DNA of 63,914 nucleotides, the filler included, from Psammoneis japonica (Eukaryota), in assembly GCA_008632985.1 (NCBI GenBank). It is 4 parts of 4 records of this genome, joined end to end, with 100 filler letters (N's around TTAATTAATTAA, not from the genome) between each part and the next. Parts side by side here need not be neighbours in the genome. Positions count along the whole stretch, not along the records: positions 41,182 to 61,565 come from QPGO01000450.1; 3 more parts are not named here. One strand, written 5' to 3'. Shown here piece by piece: positions 40,101 to 61,565 of the stretch. The notes below the pieces were generated by a model. The model made no database searches. It was not told the origin of the DNA and saw nothing but the letters and a program-made list of their open reading frames with translations. A program made the position numbers and the translations under genes. How positions within the stretch are numbered: position 1 is the stretch's first letter; each line of letters opens with the position of its first letter.

Positions 40101-41081
40101 CCCATGTTCAAGTCCAGCATGCGGGAGGTGAAGAGACTGGCTGTGAGGGGCACTCGTGCTGTTGCCAGTCATTTCGGTGTGGCATCACCATCAGGTGATG
40201 CTGGTCCAGGCTGGTCGCTGTGTGCCCCTGCTGCACACATGTGCGCTGGGGGTGTGGGTTAGCTTGTTGCCGGAGTTGCTGGGCGGAATCGCAATGGCAC
40301 CTTAAAAATGGATGTTTGGTTTTGTTTTCTCACATGACTCCCAGTGCTTGTGGGTGGTGTGGTCTTGTGTCTCCTTGACCACAGCCTCCTTCCTTGAATT
40401 TGCTGCATCTGGCTGCTTCACAGCTTCATGCATGTGCACAGTGTCTGGGTCAGCAGAGGCTTTCAAGGAACAAACCACAGGATCATCGAGATCCACCTGG
40501 AAATCATGTTCTGAGCACATGCATTGGTCCAATGTTTTGAATTTGGATCTGCACAACATGACATTGGCATGGCGCTGCAGTTCTGACTCGATCATGCGCT
40601 TTGTTGGTTGAACAGTGCGTCCAGACCATGTTGCTCTCATTGCTGGCAGAGGCTCTGGTTTGGGTGCTTTGGACTCTGGAAGCAATTCAGGGGTTTCAGA
40701 TGCTCCCTCATTCATCGTGGTTGCATGTCTTTGTCCTCCTCAACCAGCTCCTCTGGAACAGCCACTTCTTTGGGCATTTCAGCAGGTTCGATGTCATGGC
40801 GGATGTCATTTGCAATTCACGGTTCTGGCGCGTGCTGTCGTCTTGGTCTTTTCTTCGACTTGTGGTTGAACTTGTGAGTCTCGAATGAAGTGACAGATCT
40901 GTTACAGTGTGTTGCCAGCAGGACTCAGTCGCGTGTTGAGATTTGAGCATTTCGAACAAATTGTCGAACCTCACATGACACTGTGGCGAGACCATGCCCG
41001 CTGAGAGGTTCAACACCAAAGCGACCGACCGACAGTGCCGCGGTGATGGTCCAAGGTGTGGACCAACTCGACAACGAGAGT
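37142..41081 (-). mobile_element. Ty1/Copia (CoDi-like) retrotransposon, 3' part, with 320-bp 3' LTR at 37142-37461
   Basis: IN tail LGPSPRH.RSVALVLN...VSPQCHVRFD; RT LLVCTDD (YVDD) and HPDVACATHQL; RNase H CVDADFCG and QQADFLTK. PPT GAGGGAGTG; LTR termini TGAGAAC...GTTCTCA. Truncated by the gap. Confidence 0.9.
39020..40325 (+). mobile_element. 5'-truncated LINE (RNase H C-terminus plus zinc knuckle) inserted in the Copia, with an 18-bp TSD
   Basis: TTTCTCACATGACTCCCA at 39002-39019 and 40326-40343. Motifs VKWTKGHKD...LNVRANKTA, CTHC...EDWDHIPKC, IGWRQIFNGRF and LWDQHN. Confidence 0.85.
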
Positions 41082-41256
41082 NNNNNNNNNNNNNNNNNNN
41101 NNNNNNNNNNNNNNNNNNNNNNNNNTTAATTAATTAANNNNNNNNNNNNNNNNNNNNNNNNNNNNNNNNNNNNNNNNNNNNAGTATTCGTCTTGCCACGA
41201 TGAGCCATTGCTTGTTTGTTTTAAGTTCTATTTTGATAATTCCAGCTTTTCAACAC

Positions 41257-42240
41257 TCACTTTTCTCTTGTATACACATTAAAGTACTCTTGGCCTTGCG
41301 GAGAATACCCACGTTCTATCCACAAGGATCCATCAAAGAAACTGCTTTCGACGTAATTGGCGCGTCCCTTGAGCAAACCAAAGAGACCCACGGGTAAATT
41401 GGACAAGCCAAAGACATCGGTTGTAATTTGGTCATAGACAAAGGTCAACAATCCAGGATTGACGGGCCCAGGCTATATAGCGTTACACCAGAGTAAAAAA
41501 AGGGAACGACTAGAACGTGAGCACAGCAAAGAGAGCATGGCATACAACATGGACTCGCCCAATATGATGTAACCCATACAGCCAAACTTACGTCCACTGT
41601 CCAAGTACTCTTTGCCACGAGACGATTCAATCCCAGCGTCTTTTCGCTAAATTGCAAAGCATAATCCATCTTGGTCTCGTCAATGAAATCCAATTGAATG
41701 GTTGCATCGCTTGGAAGATCACCCATGGTGGCCCCGTCGGTCGAAAACACCAAGGTCCATTTCGTATTGGGCAGTACGCTTCCAATTTGTCCCAGAGGCA
41801 ACATGGATGGTCGTTGTGCAATAATTTTCTTGACATAGCCCGTCAATTCCAACTTTTTTTCAATCATTAATTGCGAGACCGAATCCCCTGATCCTTCATG
41901 GCTTGTAGTTGAACTTTTATTCTTGGTATTCAAAATTGGTGCTTGCTTCTTTGTCTTTGTTGCTACTTTCACTTGTTTTGGAAGAAAAGCCCTTGCTCTT
42001 GTCGGCTGCAAAGAGTTTCGACTTTCTGTGGCGGTTTTTGAGTCAGAAACGTGGCAATTCGATTCTGACGAGTAGTACTATCACTACTGACGACTCCTGG
42101 AGTGCCATGTGTAGACACAAAAGCTCCGTCTATTGATATCAATGAGGAAGTAATAAGGATCGTTGCGAGGACAACAGTTATCTTTCTCAAGCCGCCGCCG
42201 TGTCGCGAAGAATGTTGTTGGAGTTGCGAGATGAGCTCAT
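41257..42240 (-). CDS. Plastid-targeted fibrillin/PAP-like protein, intron 41473-41591
   Basis: Hydrophobic leader ending IDG-AFV (diatom ASAF-type); KWTLVFST; FFDGSLWIERG. GTAAGT...TAG intron in frame. Two apparent indels near 42190 and 42010. Confidence 0.6.
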
Positions 42241-42472
42241 TGTTGTTGGTATGTTTGTATGTTGTGAGAAAAAGGACTGTACGGAAAGAGACACACTGCT
42301 TTTGTAGCAACTGAGAAAATACGAAAGCTTTATCGGAATGGGAATGACACACAACACTTGAATGCCGAGTCAATCGGGTTGACAACTGACAACAGTGAAA
42401 TCATAAAGATCATGAATCATCATGAGGTTGGTGTCGTGTGTCGTGTCGTGTGCGTGATGACGGTGACGGCAG

Positions 42473-42579
42473 CGAGTCCCGAATGGACTTTGAGTCCCGA
42501 ACACCTTACCAAAATTTTGGTAGGGCTAAATACCAAAATTTTGGTAAGGTGTTCGGGACTCAGACCTATTCGGGACTCG
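42473..42579. repeat. Nested perfect palindrome between two divergent genes
   Basis: 32-bp arms at 42491-42522 and 42531-42562, each containing the palindrome TACCAAAATTTTGGTA. Outer 12-bp arms CGAGTCCCGAAT/ATTCGGGACTCG. Confidence 0.95.
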
Positions 42580-42780
42580 AATCTTCTCTCTGTCCGTGCC
42601 TCCACAATCCCTTGCCGGTACACAGTGGACACTCGTACAAAATTCACGAACTCGGCTTTCTCCTCACTTTTTCGGGAACGGGAAAAACAAAAAGCACACT
42701 TTTGCACGAATATCAATTCTGCAAAGACAACAACTGAAACAGAACGCAAAAGGCAACAATACAATACTACCAATTCCATC

Positions 42781-43557
42781 ATGGACTGTCAAGAAGAAAC
42801 AAGAAAGAGTGTACGCTTTTGCAAAAGTGTCGCGGTTCATCGATACCAAAAGGCACCGCACTTTCAATGGTACAATATGGCGGAGCAAACACAAATCAAA
42901 AAGGACGCACTTTGGGTAGTGAGAAAAGCGTCTTCTCAAAATGCAGAATTGTTTGGCATATGTAGTGCAACAAAGCACTTGTTGGACAATACCTTTACCA
43001 GCATGTCCTTGACACACCAACTCTTGGCGCAGTGGAGTCGATTCTGTGGACCATTACGTGGATTGGAGCGATTGGTCAATATCAAACACGGAAAGGAAAG
43101 ACACCAGCGACAGAAAAATGTCGTTCAAGCAGTCTTGTACGCACAGTATATAAACAAACAACTCGACAACTACAATGATGTAGATTTGATTGCACAAGTG
43201 TCATGCGACAAGTCGAGACACGCAGTGGAGTTTGCTCAACAAATTGCCCTGGCGGACTATCGTGCCTTGGCTACCGAAATGTCACCACAAGAAGAACAAC
43301 AACATCAATTGTTTCTACAAAAGCATGTTCGAGTCGAACAAGAACCACAAAATATGAGCAAGAAGGATATCAAGAGCGGCCGCGGCATTTCCATCTCGCC
43401 ATTAGAAGCCATCAAGGGCTTTTCAAAACAAACTTCCGAAAAGTTGGAGGATGTAGAGATGGAAGTCACACCAAAACAGAGTGGTCCTCCATTTTCTCCA
43501 ATAAAGCCATTGAAGCAAACTGTACCAAATGAAGACGTTGCCGTTGGGGTATGGTGA
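42781..43557 (+). CDS. Diatom-type hypothetical protein (KSVRF...WY...RGLE family)
   Basis: Intact ORF with KSVRF, WYN, LRGLERL, VQAVLYAQ and A..D motifs. Normal composition. Confidence 0.75.
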   Translation: MDCQEETRKSVRFCKSVAVHRYQKAPHFQWYNMAEQTQIKKDALWVVRKASSQNAELFGICSATKHLLDNTFTSMSLTHQLLAQWSRFCGPLRGLERLVNIKHGKERHQRQKNVVQAVLYAQYINKQLDNYNDVDLIAQVSCDKSRHAVEFAQQIALADYRALATEMSPQEEQQHQLFLQKHVRVEQEPQNMSKKDIKSGRGISISPLEAIKGFSKQTSEKLEDVEMEVTPKQSGPPFSPIKPLKQTVPNEDVAVGVW

Positions 43558-43983
43558 TGCTCGAGTCGGGGTTGACTCGTGATGGCTTCAAAGCACAATA
43601 AGGTAACAAGTAGTGCACTCTACTAGCTAGACATATAGATTCAATTAGATATTTAAGTAGTATCTTAGGCGTTACCTATTATATAGTTCTGAATGTGTCT
43701 CTATCATAGTGAGTCCACGGTGAGCAGGGCAACGCCTGTTGTCGCCGCTATCGTTCTCATCTGCTTTTCCAATCCCAGGGCCATTGAACAATCTTTACGT
43801 TTTTGAATGCAGTGTCTTGTGGCTTTCGTGGTGCCTGCCTCGACACTTTCTATTACACTCTCAACACACGACACAACCTTCTGAGCAAGTACCGGTATGA
43901 AGGTTTCACAACGATGATGCGGATAAAAAAACCGCAACCCTCTTACGAATATATGAGATTTCTATTAAACTTTTGAATAGTAT

Positions 43984-45817
43984 CTAGTGTGACGCAACGC
44001 TTGTTCTGGATCCGACGGTACCCATTCCACTCAATACCGCCGCCATGCTGACATTTTCGTCTGCGGTACCAAATCCCGCAGCCTGTTGTGCAATACTCTT
44101 TCCACTGTGCGGAACAGGATCGTGAATGGCTTCCGTCATGGGAGCTACCTTGTTCTTTCGGATTATTCGGATTTGCGTACGTGTGTTTGCGTCGAGTGCC
44201 TGCGGTGATTTCAAGTACGGGTCTGACGGTTTCATAAAGTCTGGAATGTGACGAGGAGGAGCGGTACTGCTTACACGATGCTTTTCCAGATAAAACTCGC
44301 GTGAGTGACGTTGCTCGCTAAAGTTTGAGCTGACCGCCTCGGCATCCGAAGCCCCTGCTGCAACAGCAAGATCCCGTGCCCAAGTTGATACTGGTGATAC
44401 ACGCTCCTCGTCTTTTCCACATCATGTTTGCCAAACATTCGTTGTTTCCGCTGGTCGTCCAGCACAGCTTTTACTGCTATTCGTACATTCATTTGGCGTT
44501 GCTTGCCTTCTTCCATGGACGCAATGTGCTCCAATCCCTATCACAGCAAAAATAAAAGGCAGAAACTGGTGTAAGTGGCATGCAATATCTCTCAACCTCT
44601 GGTATAACAATAGAGCTTGATTCGTACTTACGCGGCGTGAATGACCAAACTTGTGCCACCATTTGTTGTCCAAGTCTTCCTTTTTCGATGGAGAGGACGA
44701 TGAAGATATCGACTCTTTCATTACACTGCTTTTGGTTCCCGGTGTTTGCCACGACTTGTTGGTCATGAGCCACACTTCACTCCCACCCTGCAACATGGCC
44801 TTGGCAACCAAGCGACCCGTCTTTTTAAAATCATCGTAATCGCTCTTTTGCCACCAAATGGCTCCCTTTTCAGCATATGTCATGTTTTTCCGAGACTTGA
44901 CAGTCACGACGCGAGCCATGGGAGCAAACTGCAAGCGTCGCGGATCGGATTCCTTCTTTTCTTCTTCGTGATAAACGGGAAAGAGTGCTCGCCGTTGTCC
45001 CGGAGCATCTTTGGGAGATTTGCGGGATTCGGGTAGATTCCTGGGTGTTTTCGTTGTTCCTCGTTTGAGAATACCCTTGATCTTGGGTTTTTCCTCGCTG
45101 TCTGGGGGCAGCTGATCAAGTAGCCCTTTACCGGCTGGTGGGGTGGATCAGCCATGAGTGGAGAGTCGGGTTGGGAGAGACCAAGTCTGGCCAAGACAGC
45201 GGATCGTTCTCGATCCGTCAGCTTGTCTCCCAGCACATCACTGCCTGTCGAAGACACTTCGTCGTCGTCTCGCTTTCCTCGCTTTGGTACGGTACTGGTG
45301 CTGTGGTCAACAATGGCTTGTTCGGTGGGAATCATATCGTTCGATGAGGTAACTCCATCCACAGAAGAGTTTGCTGACGGAGCTGAAGGAATCGAGTCGT
45401 CCTCGTTTTCATCGGTGGACTTGCTGCTTTGATCCTCGTTGTTTGCCATCCACGTAGGAAACAGACAACAAAAGATGTTTTTCTTGTCTCTTTCATGACC
45501 AAGTAGTGTTGGTGCATAAGGATCCATGTTGTAGCCATCATAGCTATATCCCGCATAATCCAAAGCAAACCTGAATAATCACCATACGAAGTAGTACTTG
45601 ACTCGTCGTTTGTTTTCGATGCTGCTGAGGCTGTTGATAAACTGTCCTTTTTGTTCTTTCCTGCAGATAGTTTATCGACTAGAGTAACTTCTGTCTGTGA
45701 CGACGGTCCATTCAAGCTGTTTCCACTTCTGTTTGTCGATCGGGTCGCTATTTTGTCTTCATTTTCAGCCAAGCTCGACAGTTGAGCATACGAGTCCCTC
45801 GTCAGACCCAACGCCAT
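43984..45817 (-). CDS. Diatom-type hypothetical protein (RGLE family), intron 44538-44631
   Basis: IWWQKSDY...WWHKFGHSRR|GLEHIAS...VKAVLDDQ. Several apparent 1-nt frameshifts. Confidence 0.65.
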
Positions 45818-47044
45818 GGCGAAAACACGTGTTTGTTGCCACAGAAAACAACCTACAAATCGGTATTCTTGTTTCTACAACTACCAAATTCACTTTCTCT
45901 CTGAAGAAAATCAATATAATTGAGAAAGCGTAGGTTAGACGGATAAGCGATGAAACCTAACAAGACTTGGAAGCACGTTCACGTGTTTTCGAGTCAATGA
46001 GAACACGACAAGCTGCAACGGAAAAAGAGTTCGCCACATCGACAACTCGAACAACCACGCGACAGCCACACGACGTGATTTTATCCGAAGGTGAATCATC
46101 CAAAAATTTCTGAAATGAATGTCTTCTACAGACATGAATATCGATAATGAAAAACACGTGGATTTCTACATACGTCAGCCGATAGGAATTCCACGTCGGA
46201 CCTTTGCACGGACTGTACTTAAAGACAACAATGTCCGAATGACAAAAGTCCGACATTTTACTTAGGAACACAAACCACCTGCAATAGATTCTCCGAATCT
46301 GATTGGCTCAACGACCAGTGAACGAACACCCTTCTTGTGTCACTGGATGGAAAAATTCAGCATGGCGAAAGAGCAGGAAGCTTGAAGCGCTTTCGACAAT
46401 GGAAACACAACGAACACAAACGAGAGCCTCGGAAAAATCCAATGATACCTACCTCGATCAAAAGAAGCAAAGCGTCAGATCGAATGGGAAGTTCTTTCTT
46501 CCGCCGTTGGAGTGAGAATCGCCGAGCACTTGTTGTTGAGAAAGAAGGGCAACTCTCGCAAAGAATGAGTTCGGCGTTGTGACCGTTTTAACTGGTAATC
46601 AGTAACGATATTATTTATATACGTGCAGCCTGACAGACTTACTTAGGAGATTCATGAATGGATGACGTCGCCAACCGGAGAGTGTTCGTCGGTTGATGCG
46701 TTAGATTGCGTCAGATCCCAGTACTAAAACTCCGTAGATTCTCACGTAGATTTTTGGCGGGAACTTCGACACACTTCAACATGCTGGATGCGGGAACTCG
46801 CCGATTATTTCCGCTTGTTGCGTTGTGCGTGGTGTTGTCTTCGTTTGAGAAGCCTTGTCGACAAAGGTACCGAACACCTGCGGAGGCAAACATATTTGTT
46901 GCATTCTCCGGCTTGAGAGTGCATTGCTACCCTGTAAAGTTGTCGAGATTGGTACCTGTAGCGAGTTAGCAAGTGAAGCGGTTCTCACAATCACTACAAA
47001 TCACCTAACAAGAACATCACCCCCATTTACTATCGTGAGACAAC

Positions 47045-48011
47045 ATGGCGGAACTCACCGATGCCGATTTGAAGCCTCACATTGAGCGATTGGTGCACAA
47101 GGTTGACTTGGATAGCACGAGTGCCAAAAAGTTTACAGCCCAACTATCAGAAGAGCTGGCGGCATTGACCTAAGCGGTCACAAGAAATTCATCAAAGCGA
47201 CCCTGCATGAAGTGATTCAGAAAATGGAACAAGACAAGCAAGACGAAAGTAGCGAGAAGAAGAGGATGAACCAGCACCACCGCCGAGAAAGAAAGCCAAG
47301 AGCAGCGGTGGAGGTGGTGGAGGCTTGGCTGCTCGTAAGGAAATATCAGACGAGCTTGCGGCCTTTCTGGGAAAGGGCAAGCAAATGGCTCGTACCGAAA
47401 TTGTCAAGGAACTCTGGGCATATATTCGGGAGCATGATTTGCAAAACCCAAACGACAAGCGTGAAATTCTGTTGGATGCAGAAATGCAAAAGGTCTTTGG
47501 TTGCAAGTCCTTTACCATGTTTAGCATGAACAAATACGTCGGAGCGCACATTCATCCATTCAAACCAGTCGATTTGACGTCGTCACCCAAAAAGAAAAAG
47601 GCGGCTGCTGCTACCTCCAAGAATGGAAAGAAGAAAGGACAGGATACGAAAAAGAGAAGAAGTGGAACGCAGGCACCGTACCAACTATCTCCCGAGTTGA
47701 TTCGGGTGGTTGAGAAGCGAATCTTGCCACGGCCTCAAGTCACACAAGCCTTGTGGGCGTATATTCGAAAGCACAATTTGCAAAATCCAAATGATAAGCG
47801 AGAAATTCTTTGTGATGACAAGCTACGTGCCGTCATGGGTGGAAAGGAAAAAGTTACCATGTTTAGTATGAACAAGTACATTACTCCACACTTGTTGGAG
47901 AAACTGGACAAGAGCTATTACAATCACGCGCAAGAGGAAAACGAGGACTCGGATCAGCATGATAGCGAATCAGGGGGAAGTGGGGCAGAATCTAGTGATG
48001 ACGAGGAATAG
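47045..48011 (+). CDS. DEK-C plus two SWIB/MDM2 domain protein (UAF30/Spp27-like)
   Basis: ARTEIVKELWAYIREHDLQNPNDKREILLD and PRPQVTQALWAYIRKHNLQNPNDKREILCD. DEK-C-like N-terminus from ATG 47045 with two apparent indels. Confidence 0.85.
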
Positions 48012-48364
48012 GCGGGGATGGAGAGGAAGTGTGTTCAATTGCATAATCGTACAATTCGAAGAGCGAGCGGTTTGTCAGTCTATTTTACTGTTAAGAATCT
48101 AGATGAGCGCCTCGTTCAATGCATAACATAGTTTCTTTATAGAGTCCTTGCTTGCTTCCTCTACTCTGCGGCGAACACTTGCAAAGGAAGATTCATAACA
48201 TGAAGCCATCGGGAATGCGCACTAGTCCAACTGTGCCTTAGAAGATCACAGGTTTCACTTGTTGCTTACAATAAAAAAGAGTAAAACAACAAAGAAACCG
48301 TGCATTTTTTCTCTCCACATGGCCTAAATTCTAAACCACGACCACAAGAACAATTCTTGAGCAG

Positions 48365-49553
48365 TTACAGGGTGAAGGGACGAACAGGCGCTGCTTCCAA
48401 AGCAAAAGCGGCGCAAGCATGTCTGCAATGACAAGTGTTCTTGCCAGTCAATGAATGATCATTGTTCAAAACAGTCAAACCCAGCATGGCATGTGCAGCT
48501 TCTCCACACTCCAGTTGATCCCAAGTTGTTGCAGCATGGTCTTTTGTCAATTTGGGTGATGACACACCATGAATCTTTTGCCACACCAACAAAAAGCCCC
48601 ACCACTTCCATCTTGTTCATCAGCTGCATTGCTGCAACAAATGCCAAGCCCAGCGGGGCAAAGCACACCACTTTATTGGGCACATTCATTGGAGCAATGG
48701 TTGGGAAACATTGCTTGTCCCTTCAATGTCACCTCAACCCAAACAGTCAGTGGCCATGGGAGCTGTGAGCTGGGCAGTGCTTGAACACCTGCAACAAGAA
48801 AAACAAGAAGAAAGTTTGTTGTGTGCGCTGGCTTGCACAAATGGAAACACAAGACCTGTGAACCATCTTCTCAGCAAGGAGAGAGGCAAGAGTTTGCAAG
48901 CTGTTGTGTTTTTGCCATGCAGCAGCTCTCCAGGAATGACAAAATCAAAAACTGTTTTGCCACTGCTGCCTCGCTGCTGCCACCCACACCAACACCGACC
49001 ACAAAACACAACACAAGCTCCATGTTTAAAGCACTGCTGTGCTTCTGCCCTGCAACTCTGGCAACAAGCTAACCCACACCCCCAGTGCATCATGTGATGT
49101 GGCACGCAGCAGCAGAGATGCGCAACAACCAGTCGAGAATCATGCCACAAGGCTGTGGTGCCCACCAGAAACAGCTGGCAGCAACAAAAACAGGACCAGC
49201 ACAATGACACTTCAAAAGCAAAGCATTTGATGCTTCACTTGGGTTTTCTTCCTGAGATTGGATCTGGCAGCAAAGGTGAAACAGGCAATCTGGAAAAGTT
49301 TCAACATGAGGAAGGGCAGGACAGAAAATGACCTCCAACTTGCGCTGAGCTGGACTCAAATTCACACTTCTGGGAGCAGCAACAACAGAAAAATGTTTGC
49401 AACATGGGGCAGAGAACTTAAAAGGACAATTAGCAGAAGGGGAGTCATTGACACTGGAGAGGCATGGACTGAGAGCAGCTGGCAAGTTGGCAAGCTGATC
49501 GTCCAAAAGGACCTTCAAGACACATGGAAAATGTGCTGAAACTTGTTCAGACT
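48365..49553 (+). mobile_element. Hypermutated fragment, possibly a LINE 3' region, cut by the LTR element
   Basis: Trp-spaced QAIWKSF..KGR...WTQ...W...WQ...WKM pattern and TpA-depleted composition. Confidence 0.3.
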
Positions 49554-52139
49554 TGACAGAATGCAAAGACAAATGGCAAGAATTCAAACAATGACTCCTT
49601 GCTGCTGTCTAAACAGCAGATGAGTCTCCACTCAGAGACCATCACAGGAGCCGAAAGACTGGTGTGTCGGCACAATCAGGCTGCTGTCATTCTTCTTGTG
49701 AGCCGTGTGGCTCGAAAGCAAACTGCATCGTGCGCGCACGTGCGGAGCTAAAGATGCGAGTAGCGCATGACAAATCACGCGCACCTAAAATCATGTTCAA
49801 ATCCTGTCACTCCCCATTTTGCTTGAGGGGCCACAGAAACAGATTTGACTTTGGATTGACTAAAGAACTTTGGAATCAAAGCACCAAAACATGAGGAGAC
49901 AAGAAAGGATCAAGGTCCTGGAGCAACGTTGCATTCTCCAAATGGGTCATCTTGAGTTGGGCTGCGTCTCCCCAATTGCAGATGCCGTTGCACCTTTTGA
50001 AGCTCAAGGCACACTTGGGATCTTGTGGGATTCCACATCTGCACTTGCAATGGAAGGAGCAAAGTTTGGTCTGGTTGACAATGTTGAACAGCGGGGCAAC
50101 ATCGCAGGACAATGTAGACAAGTTGACATCACCGTCACTCCCCAAACTAAGGTCATAAAGACTGACAGCCACCAAGGGATCCTGATTGGGAGGCCCAGTC
50201 TTGAGGTGCGAGACTTGAGGGATCCAATCAGGAGGCCCAGTCTCGAGATGCGAAGTTCCAGGGATCCAATCAGGAGGCACAGTCTCAAGATGCGAGACTT
50301 TAGGGATCCAGTCAGGAGGCCCAGTCTCCGGGTGTGAGACATGGGGGATCCAATCAGTGCGAAGCTGCTTGGATGTCCTGAACTCCCCATCTGATGAACC
50401 GGTTGAACTGTTGTGAACAGATTTGATGATGGGAAAAGGAGGCTCCCCATCAGGAGATGCAAGAAGCAAGTTGTCATTGCCGTCACTTCCCAAACAAAGG
50501 TCATGAAGGGTGACAGCAGCCAACACTTTGAGGTTGGCAGCATGTGGTTTGCGAGGTGCAAGGGTTGCAGCTTTGGAAGCCGTGGGTGGAGTGTCCCAAC
50601 TGGTTTCAAAGTGCGGGCCTGCGTAAGGGCTGCAATCCTGCACTAGGCCGAGGCTGCTTGCAGGCGGGGTGGTCAAGACATGCGGGGCGCGACTGATGCC
50701 AAAAGATGGGGACACCTGAGTGGCGGCACAGTGCGGGACTGGCGTCAAAATGGTGCTGGGTTCACCTGGTTTGGATGGCAAGGGACCCGGCACAGGTGCG
50801 GAGGGTGCTGCACCAGTGGCCAGAGAGGTCAAGCAGTCCGGACCAAGGCGGCAGTTGCGAAATTCCTCGGGTGTGAACAACTGAGGGTTGTTGCTGACGT
50901 CATCACCATTGCGGGATTTGACAGTGTAGAAACTGATCAAAGCTGCCAACAGATTCTTGTGCCCACGTGGCAAAGGTGCAATGCTGCCGTTGTTGTCATA
51001 GACGAGGGCGTCGATTTGGGACGGGAGAAAAGCAAACAGATCTTCGCACGAATCAGAGCCATCAATTGACAGAGCTGATCAAAGAGGGCTGTTCTCACTT
51101 TGGTTGAGCACAGTGCCGAGAATGCACTCAAAGCTTTTGGTTTGTTGCTGTCGCGTGAGAACCATGACAAAGGATGGTGCAGCAGATGCAAATGACAGGA
51201 ACGAATCTAGAGCGTGGTCTCGACCAGAAGTTTTGACTGGAAACTTGGGTTGCAAAACTTGACTTGAAACAGACTTGACTTGAAACAGACTTGACTTGAA
51301 ATCTTGAACTATCTCAAGATCAGAAGTTGCCGGGTTGTGCTGTCCTGTTTGCAGCCAAGTGCAAAACTTCCCATCCGGACCGCAGAGTTGTGTGGGCATG
51401 TCCGAACCCGCAGCTGGTGGCGCTTTGGGTTGCTTGCGAACGGAGCAGCAGGTTGTAAGCCCCTGCAGGCAAGCTAACCAGAGGTGGACAAGACCCCCGA
51501 ACCGTTCTTATTTTGTGTCGGTTGGATTTCCCGATCAGGCTGGCCAGCTGACGTTGGCGTCAGGTGCTGTGGACGAACGAACAAATGCGGGAAAAGCACC
51601 CTCGCCCCAACGTAGACTGCAATCACGGCTGCTTGCTCTCACAGTCATCCTCGTGGACCTGGCAGAACTGCAGAGCACCAGCAGTCTGGGGCAGACAGGA
51701 AACAATGGACTCGGCGTGCGTGTGGGGAAGTGGCAAGGCCGGAGTCAAAGGAGCAGGATCAAGTCCTTGGTTGTCTCGGTCGTGAAAAAGCATGTGCATG
51801 TGTGCATTCAGCGATGAAGCTCCTTGAATGGGTGTGGGGTTCTTGACCGTTAACCGTTGAATGAACATGTCCAGCGACCGTCAACCGATGAATGAAGATT
51901 TCAAGCGACGGGGATCAAGAACAGACTTGGAAACAGCCGTTGAATGCAGGTCTTTGGCAAACAAAAGGTGGCACAATCAATCCAGACATGCAGCAGTAAA
52001 AGGAGTCCAATGGGGAGGTTAAACTCCTGCCGATGCTTGGCATTGAGTGCGCGTAGACATGCCGATGTAAGCAGAACACACACAGAGGCCTGCGCAAAAT
52101 GAAAACAGCATCGTCGGCAGATCAATGACGACGATGGTG
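49554..52139 (-). mobile_element. Second copy of the non-autonomous LTR element; 3' LTR at 49554-49809, 5' end interrupted by Gypsy A
   Basis: Collinear reverse complement of 12750-15735: LTR, PPT, gag-like ORF and 42-bp repeats. Confidence 0.92.
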
Positions 52140-55100
52140 TGTCATGTGGCACAAGGCCCATTGTGGGTGATTGTGGTGATTTTAAGAGTCGTTCATGAAA
52201 AGTGAGACTGCAAAAGTGTAAAATTCTAAAGTGAAGTTCTGGAGCGGCGGTTCTGTGGAATGTTCTTTGTCTTGTCTTTTTCCAGAGACTTTTCTTCCCA
52301 CTCATGCACTGAATGTTCCTGAGATTGTTCTTAAATGCATGGCATCTTGGGACTTCTGAGGAGTTGTCTTGAGACTCATGCATCGTGTCCGAAGGTGTCA
52401 CGGGAAAAGTCGAGTGCTCTGATTCGCTCTTCATTGTCTTGACCATTTTCTTGTGAGAATTGGATTGGTTGAAAAGGGACTTGAAGTTTGGTCAAGAAAT
52501 GTCTTCTTGATTTACTTGGGAAGTGGCACAGTGTGCTCAGGGAGTGACCGTTGTGTCCCGATGTTCAGCATCGCTTTCTGCACGTGCTCGGTTGTTTGCT
52601 TGGGCAGAAGATTTTGGACAAATTGTTCATGGAACATGTGTGTGTCTCTTGATGTGTGTTCACGTAGATGCGTGTTGGTTCTGTTGGTCATTCTCTGTTG
52701 TTCTTTAAGACGTCACAAAGTGTCGGGTCATGAGCACGATGTGACATGCACCTCCTCCAATGAATCACATCAGGGAGAGAAAGGAACGAGACGTTGTGTG
52801 TTGACAGTCTCGCGGTGATTTCCTTTTTGGATGATGACGGTGCCATTGGACTTTGTTTCATGTGTCTCGCATGGGCCAAGTTGGTGCAAGGCGAGTTTGG
52901 ATCGATGAGGGTCATCGTTTCGGAGAGAAACAAGGTCTCCTGCTTTGAAGTCATGATCGAGTCGCCGAGAGTTTTCACGCGCGTCATCCACTTGCGCTTG
53001 TTGTCGGCGGTGAGCACAAATGGTCGGCCAGTGGACGTTGCATTGTAAGGGCAAGATCATGTTGTGTCCAAAAGCAAGTTGGCCGGCAGAGGCTAGCATG
53101 ACGGTGTGTGCCATCGAGTTCATTGCCCAAGTTGCTGAGGCTGTCATTGCATTCCACGGATTTGGTTGATTAAATGCGTTGGGACCATCAACTTGTTGAG
53201 CTCATGTGCAGCTCCACAAAACATCGTGGGTCCGTTTGAGCAGTGAATTTGCTTGTGGGTTCTGCACTGTTGTGGGCTTAGACTTGGTCCCATGAGAAAT
53301 TGACAGCTCTTGAAATTCAATGCCTGTAAATTCTGCACCGTTGTCGTGCGTGCAACAGACCGGGCATGGGAATTTGCATGACCACACTTGGTCAAATGCT
53401 CTGGCAGTTTCCAGAGCTGAGACTGTTGAGATCTGATCCATGCCAGAATGATGAGCAGCTAGATCCACCATCGCAAGGGCGGTCAGCATTAAACTCTGTC
53501 GGTTGACGCCGGCACCAGTGGCAAAGGCAATCGGTCCGACAGTGTCGACTGCCACCTGCAACCAGGGGTTGATCTCAAGGGCCTGTGTGTCCTTGAGAGG
53601 TGTTTTTCCATGTGCTCTGCGGTTCTCTTTGGACCTTGGACAGGTCTGACATTGGTCTGTTTTTGTTTTGACGCCTTGGGTCAAGCCTTGCCAATGACAG
53701 CACTGTCTGAGGGTCTTTTCCATCCGTTGGACACCTGGATGGCGTAAATTGACATGATGCCAATTCAACAGAGGTGCTTGTAGAGCTGCAGGGATGACAA
53801 TCTTGTCCTCAAAAAGGACCAGGCACAGGTGTCCATCCTGCACCATGCAACTGCAGTCAGGTGATTCTTTCCGACTCGGGTCAGTTCGAGCAAGTTTCAA
53901 TGCTTTTTTGCACACAGCATCATCTTGCTGTGCTTCAATGATTGTGTCAAAGGAGACAGGACAGTGAGTGTCATCATCACATTCAAAGGCAAAACACTCT
54001 TCCAGCATTGGATCTGCCGCTGGCATCTCTGGGTCGTCAGTCGTGGTCACGGCACGGGACAGGAATTCCGCAAGCACATTTTTTGCTCCCGGCAGATAAA
54101 GAATCATGGGACCAAATTCTTCCACAATCAGCCGCCAACGACATGCTCGGTCTGATTTGAAATTTGCAAAGGTCAGATTCTTGTGATCCACACAAATCAT
54201 GATCCTGTGACCCAACAGGATGTCACGACACTCTCGGAGCATCACAACTGTCGACAGCAATTGTTGTTCAACAACTGGACATCTTTTTTGCGTGTCAGAG
54301 AGTTTGCGGGAGTAAATTGCTGTTGGGCGCTTGTCTTGAATGACAACGCTGCCTGGCTGGCATTTTGAAGCATTGGTGTAGATGCAGAACATCTCATTGA
54401 AATCAGAGCAGGCAAGAAGCGTCTCGGCAGAGATCCATCTCTTGATTTCTTGAAACGCTTGTTCGTGTTCGGGTTTCCACTTGAACTTGACTGCTTTTGA
54501 GGTCATGCTCGAAAGAGGTGCCAACAGATGGGCACGAAGGCGCCACATCTCGCGACAGAAGTTTGTTGTTCCGACAAAACCTCTGAGTTCTTTCTTTGTT
54601 TTGGGTGAAACCAAATTCACAATTGCATTGACCTTTTTTGGTTGCGGCTTGATTCCATGCCCAGTGATGACAAATCCTAGGTGCTCCGTTTCTAGAGTGC
54701 AAAAGAAAGTTTTTCGCAAATTTGTTCTAAAGCCTGCATCATTCAAAAGCACAAACACTTCATGCAATTGGGCAAGGTGATCATCAAAGGATCCCTTGCC
54801 AACAATCAATGGGTCGTCAATGAAAATCAAAACGAATTCCAAGTGTCCTGACAGGTCAGTCATGACTTCTTGGAATGCATCTGGGGCTGGTGCAAGTCCC
54901 ATTGGCAATCTGCAGCAAGCATGTTTGCTGAACGGCAGCACAGCAGTCAAATGCTGCTGACATTTCTGGCTGATCTGTGTCGTAAAAAATCCCATGTTCA
55001 AATCGATCGCTGTGACACAAGCACAGCCGTGTGGCTTTCGTAGCATGGTTGGCATTGAAGGCAGAGGCCAAGGGCATCGTTGCATGCATTGATTTAAAAG

Positions 55101-56615
55101 CCGAAAGTCGGTGACGAATCGGCAATCACCACCTTTCTTCGGTGTGAACATTGAAGGAAATCCCCAAGCTGAGTCTGAGATCCTTCTCAGAACTCCTGCT
55201 CGGCATGATCACTCTGCTTCTCCCTTCGCCATGTTGTGGTTGATCTGGGGTGTGCTGTGAGGTCGGCACATGATGGGCTTGGTGCCGGGCTTAAGCTCAA
55301 CACTGACCAGTGGTCGCTTGACACACTGTCTGAGCTCTCCTTGCGTGAGGCTTGAGAAGTCTTCTGGCAAGGCAACAAGAGCTTCACCTTGTTCTCTTGA
55401 CAGATGCTCGGGCACACATTCTTGTAAGTCCTCTGCAGGACTGCAGTCATTTGGGCAAACAGCCTTGGTCTTACGAGCTGCCATGAGCTCTTCTAGCATC
55501 GTCGGTTGGTGCCAAAAATCTTCAGGATGTCTCATTGGAAAGGACAAGTCATCCCAAGTGATGACTTTTTCTTGGAAATCAAGCTTCATTCCAAGCTTGA
55601 ACAGAACATCTCGTCCCACCACAGCATCGTAGATTCCCTGCAAGGATGAAATGTAAAGGCGTACGTTGAATTGTCTGTGTGAGGATGTGTCAAGGAATCG
55701 ACAACAAGCTGGCACGATGTGAGTTGTCTGATGGGTCTGCGCAAACAAGGTCTCCCATTGTGTTGGTGCTGAGGCAGCCTCATCCAGTGCTCCTTCTGAG
55801 AGCACATCTTTCTTTGTCATTGTTCAACTGCTGCCGCTGTTGAGTGAGGCGAGCAGAACATTGTTGCTTTTGTCTTGAGTCCCATCGATTGGATCAAGCA
55901 GTTGAAGCCGCACGACACATCCGGGGTTCTTCCATTTGTGTTTTTGAGGCTTTCATGCTGCGTGTCTTTTTGGCTTTTTGTTTGCTGCTTTGCTCTTCTT
56001 CTTGTTCTCTGAAATGGTCAGACATGCCATCTCCAAGGATTTCTTCTTGTTGGTGGAACCAAGTGCGATGCTCTTCATCATCTGGGTGCACCACACCAGG
56101 TTCACAGTAAAAAAAATTGTGATCACTGAATGCACTCAAAGGCTTGTCACCATCACTGTGAGGATCTGGTTCAGGCATTCGTGCCACTGGTTGTGGCTCA
56201 GGCACCACGGCTGGCACAAGTTCATGCATCATGAGAACACTTTCTTCATCGGTGTCAGACTCTGGGGCCGCTGACATTTTCTTGTCAGACTTGCCAGTCA
56301 CAAGTTCGTCTGCCGATGCAGCTCGCTTCGTCTTTGATGTGGTTGCTCAACGAGAAAGTGAGCCATGTTGCTCATGTGGGCAGGGTTTGGTGTCTTCGGA
56401 CGTTTTCGAATGTCCTTCATCTTCATGGAATTCATCTGGATGACTTGGGACAATCAAGTTTCTTCTCGCAGGATGAATGCCTCCATGAGGGAACACTGCG
56501 CAGCAGTCGCAATCATCCATTCCATCTGGACATGGTGCCTCTGTCAACTCCTGGGCATCCGTGCTGTTGTCATGCTCAAAGATTGATGACATCAGAGATG
56601 CGCGCTTGCACGCGC
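52140..56615 (-). mobile_element. Ty3/Gypsy element A (3' LTR 52140-52746; PR-RT-RH-IN), gag interrupted by Gypsy B
   Basis: LLASLNSGS (for LLDSG), FIDDPL, CIYTNASK, HPGVQRM, THDNGAEF. PPT GGAGGAGG next to TGTCAC...ATGACA. Confidence 0.9.
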
Positions 56616-59600
56616 TGTCTGCCCTGTGTGTGCACTGGGCGCTGAAAAAGAAGATGTGTTTTGACTTTGTCGTTGTGAAAATTGTGAGCTAGTTTAGAGC
56701 AGAGAAAATGGGATCGTGCGAACAGGGAATCTTGCCAAATCCCCATTCGTTTGCATTTGGATCGCATCAAATCGATCGTGCGTTTGCATTGTGGATCGTG
56801 CGAATCAAGCCATCACGTGCCATGCACGAGTGATGTCATCATGTGGAATCACACTGCCATCGTGGGCCAGACGATGGGCCAGTGTGCTTCACACGGATGC
56901 TCTCTCAGCATCCTTCTGGAATTGCCTGAGACCCAGAGCCATGCCCTCCTGTGGTCGTGCTTCCCAGGTGCGTGTTGACAACACTACGTTGCCATGCACA
57001 AGAGGCTTGCGCATGGTCTCGCCGTGTTGTCCAGCAGCGAGGCACACTGCACACTCCCCCATGATCAGGGCCGTTAAGTGACAGAATGTCTCACTGGTGA
57101 CAGGGTGCAATCTGCCATAGATTGCACGCATCCATCAGCGCTCCGTTCTGGGTGCGCAACATGCCGTTGTCATGTGCACGGACAACTCTGGCAGGTCCTG
57201 CACAGCTGTCAGAACTGCACTTAGAGGATTGTTCCTGTTTGATGAGTGCCAATTGCCCTGCGGTGCATTGACACTCCTTGTGTTTCTGATTTTCACGCTT
57301 GTCATTTAAGTGGACAAGCTTCTGCTTTCTGGTTTCTGTGTGCTTCCACTTGGCACGATGGGCAATGGACAAAACCGCGTCACGTCTGAAGACCAATTGC
57401 ATGGGACTTGCACATGTGGTCGTGTGCACCGCAGCTCTAACAGCGAAGGCTGCTGTGGAGAGGATGCCACTCCATGGGTCATCTTTGTCCAGTTCCATGT
57501 CCTGCACTGAAAAGGAATGCACCATGTTGCCAAGTGTCTGGTGCACATGTTCCACTGTGGCATTCGCCTGTGGATTCCACTTGCTTGTGGGTTTCTTCAA
57601 AATCCCACAGTCATTTTTAATCATCTGGCTAAATTCTGCCATAAATTCTGTCCCACGGTCATAAACCACCTGGGTTGGCCACGGATGTCTGCATGGCCAC
57701 ATTTGTTCTACGACGTTTGCTACGACGTCTGCGCGTTTCGTAGACACTTCTTCAATCTCGAACCACCCGGTTGCCGGGTCGATCATTGTGACCGCCCATG
57801 ACTGCAAAGTGTCCTTTCCGCGCATTTGAATTTTGTGTGGCCCTGTCACATCCATGCATGGAGTCTCCCATGGAATTATCTCAGCAACCTTTTCTGGCAG
57901 CTTCCCATGATGCTGCATTCAGCGTTTTGTCTTCTGGCATCGATCGCACTTGACGCATGTAGAGTGCACCGTAGACCTCATGCCAGGCCAGCAGAAGTGC
58001 TGGGCAATGGACATTTCCGTGCGTGTCTCTCCTGGATGACACAGTGTCTCGTGGTGCCATTCAGTTGGCAGAACCTGCAATGACTGTGGTGCTGCGATTT
58101 TGTCCTTATGACAGATTAACTGTCGTGATGACCCTCCCCCACGACACGTGCGAATGGAGCAGTCGGACGAGTCCTCAGCTCGCGAGAGCAGGTGCTTGTC
58201 CTTTTGTTGTTCTTTTTGAATGTGCTTGAAGCCAACGGGCGGAGGTGCGGCGTCTTGCGCCTCTGCATTAAAGAGGCTTCATGCAAAGGACGACTCGATG
58301 GAGTGTCTTTTACATCCGGATTGGCTTCGGAAGGCAAGCTGGGTGCCAGCCGAAGGCGACTGAGAGCGTCAGCGACTGGGTTGTGGGTGCCCTTAACACA
58401 GCGTAATTCGGGACCGCATTCTTCGCATGTCAACCGCCAGCACATGACACACTCGGCATTGAATGCTTTGTGCGCAAGATGCCCATGATCAGCATGTGTG
58501 ATCATGCGACAACCAAGGAGAATCGTTTGAAATTCTTTCAACGTCTCCACAATGGCGAGCAATTCTCTCTCCATTGTTGTGCAATTTAATTGCGCACTGT
58601 CAAGCTTTCTGCTGTAAAAGGCGACAGGTTTATCATCTTGGGACACAACTGCTCTCAATTGATGTTTAGAGGCATCGGTGTGCATCTCAAAGGGTTCATT
58701 AAAATCAGGATGTGACAACAAAACATCATCCAATGTTGCCCGTTTAACGGTTTCGAATGCCTCGTTTTCAACGGATGTCCACTCCCACTTGACAGTCTCG
58801 CTTGCGAGTCGTGTTGGCGGAGCCAAGACTTCAGAACGTCTAATCCACGTGTCGTGGCAGCAGTTCACCACACCAATGAATGACCCGCAGGTCGCGTTTG
58901 TTGGTTGGGGTTGCGATTCGCTTGATGGCGTCGACTTTATCAGGCATTGGTCACACTCCGTCTCTGTTGACCAAATGACCCAAGCACTCTAATTGGGTTT
59001 GACAGAAGTGAGATTTGGTTGCGTCAACTTTTAGTCCTGCTTTCTGGACCCTCAATGAAACTTCTTCAAGTTTGTTGAGGTGATCTTCACAGGTGCCTTT
59101 TGTCACGACGAGAAGGTCATCTAAGCACGTTCAAACAAACGATGGATCTTCAAATGGGCCTGACATGCGTTCTTGGAAAATGTCTGGCGAACTGCATGAC
59201 CCCATGGGCAACACCTGCATCTCATGCTTGCCCCACGGGAAGATGAGCGTGCAGAGCTTCTTGCCATCAGCATCCAATTGGATGTGACAATGGCCCACAT
59301 TTAAATCCAGAGATGTGGCCCACACAAAGCCTTTGAGCTTTGAGCAGCACGTCTTGGATGTGAGGAATCGGGTGAGGCAATCGCTTGATCCGTTTGTTCA
59401 GCTCTCTGAAATCATTGACAAAGCGTGCCGTTAAGTCTTTCTTCAGCATGACAAATGATGGAGCTGCCCATTGGGATCGGTTGACGCGTTTGAGAACACC
59501 GATGCGCGCTGGGCGCTCTGCTTCTTTACGCAGCACAGCTTCGTGCACACGAGGTGCTTTACACGGACGAGCGTGGTGTGGTTGTGCACCCTCCTTGAGT

Positions 59601-61565
59601 TGGATGTGGCAGGGTTCTCCCTTCCATTCTCCAGATGTCCCATCAAATGAGGACTCATGGCGTTTCAACAGTGCCAAAAGGTTGTTTTGTTGAACTGCAG
59701 AAAGTCCCATGGCCGATCGCATCATGTCCTTGAGGCAGGCCGGCGCGTGCTTGGCATCTGAAACACGCAAAATCCAGTCAGTTTCCGAAGACAAGGCTTC
59801 TGGATCTTGAAGATAGAAGGAGGTTTCCACCGCAGCATCCATGTGCCTCATTGGTGCTTCTCCATTGACTGATGGCCACTCTGTCATCTGTTCAGAGAAG
59901 ACAACATCAATGCCTTGTGTCTCCAGAATGTCACGTCCAACAATCATGTCGCACTTGCCCAACTTTCCATTGTGTGCGTGGACGGCATGTTTAAGTTCTG
60001 CAGTTTCGGACAATTCTGGCAACTGAAATTTAACGGCACAGTCGTCAGACGCACCAAACGAGCCTGTTGCCGTAGTCCAGTTAGTCTCAGCCATTGAATG
60101 GCTTTGCAAACGCTTGCAGTGTCAACTGTTGAGTGGAGTGCTGCTGGCGCCACCATCTGGCAGTGCCTCAATGGTCTGAGTCTTGCCCTTGCCATGTTCA
60201 GCATTCATGGCCACAAACAAGATTGGAGTGAGATGAGTCTTTTTAACTCATTTGCGGGATTGGCCTGCAACACGTGTACGATGGTAATTCAATTGTTCAT
60301 TCACACATTCATCCAATGTGTTAAAACCACCGGCATCATGTTGGCCTCCTCCTCAGGTGTCCGAATCTTTGGAATCACTTAAGTTGAGGTCACGGAAGTG
60401 ATCAAGCTCCTCCTTGCGTGCCTTGCACTTTTTCTGAGCATTGGCAAAGAACTCCTTGACCTTTGATCTGATGAGAGCATCAATGTCTTCCTCATTCCGA
60501 GGTTTTTCATCAGGCTTGCTGCCTCCGTTGTCAGAATGTCCAGTCTTGACATGTTTCACGTGGTGCTTGAGCTGACGGCAATCCTCCGCATGATGTCCAC
60601 AGTTGGTCCTGTGTGGCACACACGACTTCTGGGTGTTCCGTTGGTTCGTGATCAACGACTCAGGATTGTCCGTTCTACGTCCCCGCTTGCGTGGAACCCC
60701 AGTGTGTTGGTCCAGGTTACCTCCGGCAAGCTCGACCTGCTCGATGCGCTCGCAGAACTGTGCAAATTCGGCAACAGTGTGCGCCAAGGGGTCAAAATTC
60801 TGTAACGTCATGACTTTCTGCCACGCGTTCGGCACACCGCACTCGAACATGTCGCACAGTTCGTCATTGGGCAATGGTGCCGGTGCTTCTCCATCCTCCA
60901 TCACGGGTGGAAGCTGAGAGATGTGGCCGTTAATTTCAACAGCCCTTGCGACATGGTCACAAGTGGAAACCTCTGCGGGCTTGTGCATGAAGCGCCTCAG
61001 ATGACGCTTCTGCAACAGTGCCGCCCTGTGTGGGAAGATGCTCTCCTTTAGCTTCGCGATGCATGCTGCGTGCGTGGCATTGGTTTCGGATGCCTGCGTG
61101 TCAGCGGCATCATTGAATGACGTCAGAGCATCACCCTGTAGTGGGTCGCGCACAAGGGCAAATTTCGCTGGCCCGGTCGTCATGTTTTGTCCTTCGTGCA
61201 TGCGATCCACGTTGCGCAGAAAGATTGGGAGTGTCTCGCATGTAGCCGCAGAAAGGCACGGGATGCCCATCTCGTGCATTGGACTGTCCGGATCAGCAGG
61301 GTTGTTGTGCAGCTTGAACATCTGGCACTCGCCCTGCTGCAGCTCTTTCTTCTCCGGCTGTGCGAACGGAATCGGCGGCTTGGTCCGCTTCTTCATGGTC
61401 GTTTTGAGATTTGTCGGTCCCACCAACATTTCATAGTTTCGTTTCTGTGGATTTCGTCACCTCGCACAATGTGCGAGAGTGACATTGCTGTGCCCCATGT
61501 GTGCACTGGGCGCTGAAAAAGAAGATGTGTTTCGACTTTGTCGTTGTGAAAATTTGAGCTAGTTT
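56616..61565 (-). mobile_element. Ty3/Gypsy element B, nearly full length (3' LTR ~56616-57051; 5' LTR from ~61489 into the gap; gag 60353-61429; pol in frame)
   Basis: Shared LTR text GTGCACTGGGCGCTGAAAAAGAAGATGTG at both ends; PPT CATGGGGGAG. Motifs ALPDGGAS, WAAPSF, CLDD, HTDASK, VADALSR, YDRGTEF. Confidence 0.92.

Follow-up and report, generated by a model that had tools for sequence, protein, structure and literature searches.

Repeat-induced point mutation (RIP) of fungi turns CpA into TpA, raising TpA and AT content. APOBEC enzymes leave G>A changes on the plus strand, and ADAR enzymes leave strand-clustered A>G changes with a preference for a 3' G. In mutation-accumulation lines of the chlorarachniophyte Bigelowiella natans, 210 of 211 and 20 of 20 new mutations were A>G or T>C, all at TpA and in integrated viral regions, where the rate of ~6e-7 per site per generation is raised ~1000-fold (Mettrop et al., bioRxiv 10.64898/2026.01.13.699255). 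The main text of that preprint also reports 124 clusters poor in TpA and rich in CpA and TpG, enriched in reverse-transcriptase and DDE domains, and proposes an ADAT2-like deaminase as the agent (Mettrop et al., bioRxiv 10.64898/2026.01.13.699255). Here we describe a 63,914-base window (the whole stretch of DNA that was analysed, four contigs joined) from Psammoneis japonica, in which repeats are deeply depleted of TpA, and we focus on Gypsy B, a Ty3/Gypsy long terminal repeat (LTR) retrotransposon copy at 56616 to 61565. We think it likely that these diatom repeats undergo DNA-level A:T->G:C hypermutation at TpA that is strand-symmetric, flank-dependent and confined to repeats, beside an independent decay of CpG.

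TpA depletion in the repeat compartments

Two kinds of DNA could be told apart in the window by dinucleotide observed/expected (O/E) ratios, with borders at 27400-27500 and 48300-48400 that are sharp to ~100 bases:

1..20600: repeat compartment, the entire contig 1, TA-poor, including a duplicated unit with helicase-associated (HA) domains
20601-20700, 41082-41181 and 61566-61665: three artificial 100-base spacers (N44-TTAATTAATTAA-N44) at the contig joins
20701..27400: genic reference compartment of contig 2, TA O/E 0.51 and CG O/E 0.93, containing an 804-codon frame
27500..41081: repeat compartment of contig 2, TA-poor and CpG-poor, bordering genic DNA at 27400-27500 (the "older blocks" of the preliminary description)
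41182..48300: genic reference compartment of contig 3, TA O/E 0.54 and CG O/E 0.98
48400..61565: repeat compartment of contig 3, TA-poor and TG/CA-rich, bordering genic DNA at 48300-48400

Because the spacers join separate contigs, reasoning about neighbourhood across them is unsafe. The window also has a 778-N scaffold gap at 62597-63374 and a lone N at 22500.

The depletion was followed block by block (figures for Gypsy B are strand-symmetrised):

Gypsy B, 56616-61565: TA O/E 0.198, CG O/E 0.766
Block at 12-17.7 kb: TA O/E 0.149, CG O/E 0.561
Block at 48.5-52.2 kb: TA O/E 0.135, CG O/E 0.481
Gypsy A block, 52201-56615: TA O/E 0.110, CG O/E 0.592
HA-domain duplicate block: TA O/E 0.088, CG O/E 0.619
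Block at 1-12 kb: TA O/E 0.062, CG O/E 0.326
Block at 27.5-37.5 kb: TA O/E 0.062, CG O/E 0.173
Block at 37.5-41 kb: TA O/E 0.045, CG O/E 0.349
Genic blocks: TA O/E 0.51-0.54, CG O/E 0.93-0.98

TA was depleted more than CG in all eight repeat blocks. The TA-poor state covers all 47 kb of non-genic sequence whatever the type of repeat, tandem arrays and the HA-domain duplicate included, and genic DNA is spared relative to it (TA O/E 0.51-0.54 vs 0.045-0.198). Over the same eight blocks (47 kb in total) TG/CA O/E was 1.56-1.83, against 1.2 in genic DNA. Pooled, the repeats have a TpA O/E of 0.10 and a CpA/TpG O/E of 1.70 at unchanged GC content (0.488 vs 0.485). GC-biased gene conversion was rejected as a cause on the unchanged O/E of AA/TT and AT.

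Gypsy B holds 58 TA, 250 CG, 528 TG and 438 CA dinucleotides, so the preliminary description was right that its TpA is nearly gone while many CpGs are kept (TA O/E 0.198, CG O/E 0.766); the CpG-rich string it quoted near 60820 lies at 60821-60840. It was also right that the blocks at 28-37 kb are poor in both dinucleotides (27500-37500, TA 0.062 and CG 0.173). However, these blocks, which it called older, sit on a different contig and are therefore no part of the nest around Gypsy B.

For comparison with Gypsy B we took related Gypsy loci in metagenomes, using the 79 best among 498 confirmed matches, a choice that favours well-preserved copies. Their TA O/E ranged from 0.58 to 1.11 with a median of 0.74, and none came near 0.2, which puts the depletion of Gypsy B far outside what chance would give. 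Eight of the 79 had a CpG O/E of 0.01-0.29 and still had a TA O/E of 0.60-0.85. Because these CpG-decayed relatives retain TA, the TpA loss is not a by-product of CpG decay. CpG methylation decay was accordingly rejected as the sole cause, the TpA loss being additional to it and missing from CpG-decayed relatives.

Tyrosine codons, strand symmetry and flanking bases

The effect of the loss on coding sequence was read by blastx of Gypsy B against the proteins of 287 relatives, using as conserved columns those with at least 60% agreement among at least 30 relatives; 14 relatives were run through the same column test as controls. Gypsy B mismatched at 195 of 663 conserved columns. A single TA step accounts for 71 of the mismatches (37 TA>TG and 34 TA>CA), a CpG step for 24, other transitions for 17, transversions for 38 and more than one step for 45. 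Among the control relatives, TA-type steps were found in 45 of 1031 mismatches. Gypsy A, a second Gypsy copy, had 21 TA>TG and 23 TA>CA steps.

Only one of 28 conserved tyrosine (Tyr) columns was kept in Gypsy B, the others reading His (12), Cys (12), Trp (1), Met (1) and Phe (1). Gypsy A kept three of 26, with 6 Cys, 5 His, 10 Phe and 2 Ile in place of the rest, and the controls kept 362 of 390. The RNase H piece of Gypsy B taken alone kept one of 11 (4 Cys, 3 His). Over five Gypsy B frames the Tyr share was 0.3%, compared with 4.1% in 120 homologs. Because a working element could not lose its conserved Tyr, the TpA loss is unconstrained mutation and not codon preference, and codon usage or selection against UpA was rejected as its cause. 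Both strands were struck equally, as indicated by the 37:34 split of products and the 12:12 split of Cys and His.

The signature is not confined to the window. It is also present in other public assemblies, as seen in three of the 120 protein relatives (P0102, P0113 and P0076; ENA and JGI entries), whose Tyr content is 0-0.4% and whose Cys plus His content is 7-8%, and which carry Cys or His at 7 of 11, 10 of 11 and 7 of 8 conserved Tyr columns, respectively. These records also bear on the idea that the TA-poor sequence is a sequencing or assembly artefact, in which modified TA in heterochromatin would be systematically called wrongly, as some long-read chemistries are known to do at methylated motifs. 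However, contigs of a public sequencing run match the TA-poor sequence (a 589-base record on 48475-49063 with 0 other letters, from a run that may be the assembly's own source), and the three relatives with the Tyr>Cys/His pattern come from other records. We regard the chance of an artefact as close to negligible.

CpG decay is a second layer on the same copies. In Gypsy B, 14 of the 16 lost conserved Arg columns are CGN>TGN/CAN-type, and CGN Arg codons survived at 18 of ~32 columns (17 of ~25 in Gypsy A), against one of 28 for Tyr codons. Transversion mismatches were barely higher in Gypsy B (38 of 663 columns) than in the controls (355 of 8658). The difference in codon survival bears out the earlier claim that TpA loss outpaces CpG decay in Gypsy B. 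That the two are distinct, as was also claimed, is seen in the eight CpG-poor but TA-normal relatives, in the loss of 27 of 28 Tyr columns and in a flank-dependent loss of TpA. The mutation-accumulation data from B. natans, which measured just this TpA>TpG/CpA hypermutation, also speak for a distinct process (Mettrop et al., bioRxiv 10.64898/2026.01.13.699255). The evidence supports a separate, sequence-specific process that outruns CpG decay.

The flank dependence was measured as the frequency of each NTAN context in repeats divided by its frequency in genic DNA:

TTAA: repeat/genic 1.01
CTAA/TTAG: repeat/genic 0.43
CTAG: repeat/genic 0.43
GTAA/TTAC: repeat/genic 0.24
ATAA/TTAT: repeat/genic 0.14
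CTAC/GTAG: repeat/genic 0.13
ATAG/CTAT: repeat/genic 0.03
GTAC: repeat/genic 0.02
ATAT: repeat/genic 0.01
ATAC/GTAT: repeat/genic 0.00

Counts of TTAA against other TA were 23/524 in genic and 71/223 in repeat DNA (Fisher p=2e-17). Relative to Gypsy relatives, TTAA retention was 0.69 in Gypsy B and 0.27-0.30 in the older blocks; because retention falls in older blocks, TTAA is slow to change but not immune. An additive model in which the rate is set by the base 3' of the edited A (T>C>G>>A) fits most of the Gypsy B values when the relatives serve as baseline. This rule equals a rule for the base 5' of T on the opposite strand.

TpA depletion could instead be intrinsic to the family, through codon usage or UpA selection, or a side effect of CpG methylation decay. 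Genic DNA is moderately TA-poor too (0.51-0.54), and TA and CG O/E are correlated (Spearman 0.61, p=6e-6 over 46 one-kb repeat windows; 0.71, p=0.05 over the eight blocks), both of which fit such an origin. However, the related Gypsy loci keep a TA O/E of 0.58-1.11 even at a CpG O/E of 0.01-0.29, conserved Tyr codons are gone although selection on a working element would have kept them, and the flank dependence goes beyond what CpG decay can yield. An intrinsic or secondary origin is thus extremely improbable. Joint scaling of the two depletions, which the preliminary description had named as the observation that would speak against separate processes, is present in part, in that the O/E ratios co-vary.

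State of Gypsy B and timing of the loss

Gypsy B and its parts lie as follows:

56616..61565, minus strand: Gypsy B, Ty3/Gypsy LTR retrotransposon copy, truncated by the contig end at 61565
56620..56695, minus strand: readable start of the 3' LTR (seen on the plus strand), repeated at 61491-61565
57091..60121, minus strand: pol, broken, with reverse transcriptase (RT)/RNase H, integrase zinc finger and integrase core
60353..61456, minus strand: gag frame, open over 367 codons, with 1 Tyr, 12 Cys and 19 His
61491..61565, minus strand: inner 75 bases of the 5' LTR, the remainder lost at the contig end

The Ty3/Gypsy assignment is based on the LTR repeat and on the domain order along the minus strand, with RNase H followed by the integrase zinc finger and then the integrase core (Pfam matches RT_RNaseH_2, 5.5e-30; Integrase_H2C2, 1.6e-12; rve, 2.8e-08). 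The RT part aligns to relatives and had no Pfam match. Proteins of relatives align with Gypsy B up to 61336. A Pfam search with the gag frame matched no family, and a search with the gag protein against metagenome contigs gave 99 pattern matches, 0 of them confirmed.

The comparable stretch of the two LTRs is only 76 nt long at 94.7% identity (64 nt at 95%), and no target-site duplication is readable. Because Gypsy B is truncated at the contig end, the statement that it was the last insertion is beyond verification from the sequence. At the outer end of the LTR repeat (56620-56630 vs 61491-61501), the same dinucleotide is TG in one LTR and CA in the other. This difference would be expected if an ancestral TA or CG had been resolved independently in each LTR, and it may fall just outside the true LTR.

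As the preliminary description stated, gag is fully open (60353-61456, minus strand, 367 codons without a stop). However, an in-frame stop never arises from TA>TG/CA, and arises from CpG decay solely via CGA. TAA plus TAG density was 8.8 per kb of frame in Gypsy B and 15.9 in genic DNA. In a simulation, 107 long frames from relatives were given either 75% TA loss together with 20% CpG loss or an equal number of random transitions. New stops per 1000 codons came to 1.0 under the TA and CpG spectrum and 4.2 under random transitions, and the probability that a 367-codon frame stays open was 0.69 and 0.21, respectively. Because the TA and CpG spectrum seldom makes stops, the open gag says little about age.

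The pol region gives a different picture of the element that had been called the youngest. It falls into four frame segments (61336-59341, 59334-58914, 58886-58286 and 58200-57105), which imply three frameshifts, and a conserved Arg column reads TGA at 59133. Neither its frameshifts nor its Arg-codon decay make Gypsy B any younger than Gypsy A, and the label of youngest element is unsupported. Gypsy A pol (52781..55847, minus strand; RT, RNase H and integrase zinc finger) is a single frame across 3 kb whose sole breaks at conserved columns are two TGA at conserved Arg columns (55211 and 53204), as expected from CGA>TGA decay. Judged by frameshifts, Gypsy A pol looks better preserved than Gypsy B pol.

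A second view of timing comes from the HA-domain unit, a direct duplication of ~1.14 kb at 17739-18877 and 19465-20600 (99.1% identical, 1726 bases apart, truncated by the contig end). Six of the ten differences between the duplicates are at CpG and none is TA-type, and both copies are TA-poor. They encode helicase-associated repeats (HA, PF03457; E 6e-20 and 7e-21) and keep 29 of 32 conserved HA columns. Across its 327 residues the frame holds 1 Tyr, 18 Cys and 15 His, compared with 3.0% Tyr and 1.8% Cys in relatives, of which a word-based search found 1 protein and a full HMMER search 9972. At position 208, the sole informative near-aromatic HA column, relatives have Phe (54%) or Tyr (43%) and the window has Cys, which is suggestive of Tyr loss in a repeat that is not a retroelement.

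We aligned contigs of one public sequencing run on the window and used 40 listed places of 1660 variant places. At these 40 places every aligned contig differs from the window, and they comprise 13 CpG-type, 3 TA-type and 16 other transitions and 8 transversions. The private changes amount to ~2.4% of the remaining sites in each class (~520 CpG and ~120 TA sites in the region). Given the equal private rates, the TA-poor state shared by the HA duplicates and the joint variation of TA and CG O/E, Gypsy B had probably lost much of its TA before this copy arose. Our reading is that the fast contexts were stripped early, largely before the split from sister copies, and that slow contexts and CpGs then decayed together.

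Loss has also continued on resident copies. Positions 57823 (GTAT) and 59840 (CTAT) are TA in all 13 and all 16 aligned contigs, respectively, and CA in the window. Two copies of an unclassified repeat family, compared over 12753-14576 and 52137-50176, show 45 CA/TG double differences, with 2-7 in other double-transition classes, and a further 15 TA|TG or TA|CA differences. The window-only TA losses and the CA/TG double differences together indicate that TpA loss goes on in DNA that is already in place. Most of the TpA loss of Gypsy B would have occurred before its separation from sister copies, followed by slower ongoing loss.

These data make it unlikely that a rapid, near-complete, enzyme-driven TpA burst follows each insertion, with slow CpG decay later and Gypsy B caught between the two. 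Such a burst would account for TA depletion exceeding CG depletion in eight of eight blocks and for the loss of 27 of 28 Tyr columns at a transversion load near that of the controls (38/663 vs 355/8658), and hypermutation in B. natans was episodic, with some lines showing it and others not (Mettrop et al., bioRxiv 10.64898/2026.01.13.699255). However, Gypsy B pol has three frameshifts and stops, its CGN Arg survival is not better than that of Gypsy A (18/~32 vs 17/~25), and 13-16 other contigs keep TA at fast-context sites that the window copy has lost. Residual TA and CpG have changed privately at equal per-site frequency, the HA duplicates, at 99.1% identity, share the TA-poor state and have no TA-type change among their 10 differences, and TA and CG O/E co-vary. 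The claim of a fast event on this copy was not borne out by the equal private changes, the HA duplicates or the joint variation of O/E. What stands of the earlier proposal is that TpA loss is a specific process of its own, probably run by an enzyme, and faster than CpG decay; that conversion was fast after insertion is unsupported.

Editing might alternatively be coupled to retrotransposition, as A-to-I RNA editing or cDNA deamination fixed by reverse transcription, so that copies are born hypermutated. This would account for copies that are CpG-rich yet TA-poor and for LTRs or duplicates that share the TA-poor state, and RNA adenosine deaminases prefer U before the edited A (cited in Mettrop et al., bioRxiv 10.64898/2026.01.13.699255). 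However, the sense-strand outcomes are symmetric (37 TG vs 34 CA, 12 Cys vs 12 His), tandem arrays, unclassifiable repeats and the HA-domain duplicate are equally TA-poor, loss is ongoing on resident copies, and the compartment borders are regional. RNA-level A-to-I editing, expected on the sense strand only and in retroelements only, was rejected on the symmetric outcomes and on the TA-poor tandem arrays and HA duplicate. We consider an origin in retrotransposition very unlikely; the target would instead be chromosomal DNA and not RNA or cDNA.

The repeats around Gypsy B are abundant in the public run. On the repeat nest at 48903-61565 the variant places comprise 1357 transitions and 287 transversions, and summed contig depth is 600-110,000, against 50-85 in genic DNA. 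For the Gypsy B family summed depth is 10,000-27,000, against 50-85 for single-copy DNA, a depth that is not a copy number. Of 8249 contigs, 3138 are at least 95% alike, but they are short and include the window's own copy, so that shared and independent mutation are inseparable in them.

Several points weigh against DNA-level hypermutation at TpA as we propose it. All results come from one 64-kb window of four joined contigs. In 11 of 58 inferred TA>TG events the next base after the edited A is A (the sense-strand frequency of A being 0.28-0.29) and in four of 58 it is G, and in 11 of 57 inferred TA>CA events T precedes the T. Because these event counts do not clearly reproduce the flank rule, the rule rests on surviving TpAs. 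The conclusion that loss was mostly inherited draws on one run, on 40 of its 1660 variant places and on few events (3 TA-type and 13 CpG-type, with one pair ambiguous), and 6 TA sites remain in the HA duplicate. Finally, the spread of a family with destroyed Tyr codons to such high depth is unexplained.

The unclassified repeat family has its two copies at 12753-15743 (contig 1) and 49546-52137 (contig 3, opposite strand), 74-83% identical by blastn. Each holds a 42-base tandem array (14402-14681 and 50189-50357), and the LTRs of this family may be the 277-base direct repeats at 12436-12712 and 15459-15735, which are 88.8% identical. Long open frames of a TA-free stretch contain a 60-base tandem repeat at 3554-4044 (8.2 copies, 79% matches), and a Pfam search with it matched no family. 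The sole Pfam match in the 13.6-kb repeat compartment of contig 2 is a weak Copia-type RVT_2 remnant at 38239-38631 (minus strand; E 4.6e-06, below the gathering score). An Rfam scan of the whole window gave 0 matches.

The 804-codon frame of the genic compartment (22958-25372, minus strand) has 174 relatives at E<=1e-10. Among the 120 listed of these, all named relatives are diatoms at 54-58% identity (Nitzschia, Seminavis, Fistulifera, Skeletonema, Mayamaea and Bacillariaceae), and the best identity of the other listed relatives is 72%. A protein atlas search with the 804-residue product gave no usable match. Because the named relatives are all diatoms, we treated the host as a diatom.

Proposed mechanism and comparison with known systems

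In the hypermutation that we favour, repeat DNA, Gypsy B included, would be edited A:T->G:C at TpA, yielding TpG or CpA depending on the strand. Rates would be fastest at TAT/ATA and TAC/GTA, slower at TAG/CTA and slowest at TAA/TTA, so that TTAA lasts longest. Editing would be restricted to repeat or silenced DNA, with borders sharp to ~100 bp, while ordinary CpG>TpG/CpA decay of methylated repeats would run alongside independently. Fast-context TpAs would be removed several-fold sooner than CpGs, and because they go first a copy that is still CpG-rich can already be TpA-poor. The data themselves show the conversion, its equal weight on both strands, its independence from CpG decay, the contexts in which TpAs survive and the borders of the compartments; the action on chromosomal DNA, the early date of most of the loss in Gypsy B and the nature of the agent are inferences. 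That agent is presumably an enzyme. It could be a DNA adenine deaminase, the proposal made for B. natans, or a thymine-modifying activity, two possibilities that the sequence cannot separate.

A literature search returned no report of TpA-specific depletion in diatom repeats and found TpA hypermutation only in the B. natans preprint. We interpret the repeats of this window as a diatom case of the TpA hypermutation first described in a chlorarachniophyte, with flank dependence as a new observation. A footprint this deep across all repeats of the window, if it holds in the diatom, would make the process a candidate for a widespread eukaryotic genome defence, and the flank spectrum, strand symmetry and compartment borders offer a handle for finding the enzyme. 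There are also practical consequences. An open reading frame in such DNA is no evidence of youth or function, since TAA and TAG have been lost from it. Dating repeats by all substitutions or by CpG alone will give wrong ages, and gene callers will predict Tyr-less, Cys/His-rich pseudo-proteins; three of 120 database relatives look like this.

More tentatively, and with doubt outweighing confidence, we suggest that diatoms and chlorarachniophytes, and perhaps the wider stramenopile-alveolate-rhizarian (SAR) group, might share a RIP-like defence of opposite polarity. A chromatin-guided DNA editor would act on silenced repeats, converting A:T to G:C at 5'-TAB-3' (B = T>C>G), erasing Tyr codons and leaving a flank signature so specific that the enzyme could be identified from it. 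Such a system would cripple coding without stopping spread, since hypermutated elements would go on to reach hundreds of copies.

Compared with fungal RIP, the process is alike in being a dinucleotide-preferring transition hypermutation that is aimed at repeats and wrecks coding capacity across a compartment. The outcome is the opposite, since TpA falls here (O/E 0.10), CpA/TpG rises (O/E 1.70) and GC is unchanged, and RIP as the cause was rejected on this direction of change. The repeats also resemble methylated transposons decaying through 5-methylcytosine, with a CpG O/E of 0.17-0.77 and TGA stops at conserved Arg. However, such decay cannot remove TpA, as relatives with CpG O/E down to 0.01 keep a TA O/E of at least 0.58. 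APOBEC3 acting on cDNA and ADAR acting on double-stranded RNA share the idea of enzyme-driven editing of mobile elements in a preferred context. Unlike either, the change here is A:T>G:C at TpA and strikes the two strands alike, with a +1 preference of T>C>G>>A; repeats other than retroelements are also affected.

The closest likeness is to B. natans (Mettrop et al., bioRxiv 10.64898/2026.01.13.699255), with its TpA target, its TpG and CpA products from hits on either strand, its restriction to foreign or repeat DNA, and its footprint poor in TpA and rich in CpA and TpG. The words flanking, context, trinucleotide and diatom do not occur in the main text on B. natans, and the dependence on flanking bases is seen here. 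The de novo rate was directly measured in B. natans, whereas here the footprint is read from sequence. B. natans is a rhizarian and the host here is a stramenopile. Its targets are two viral inserts and 124 small clusters, whereas here LTR retrotransposons, tandem arrays and unclassifiable repeats covering ~75% of the window are affected, and the depletion is deeper (O/E 0.05-0.2, compared with 0.45 in the B. natans giant-virus region).

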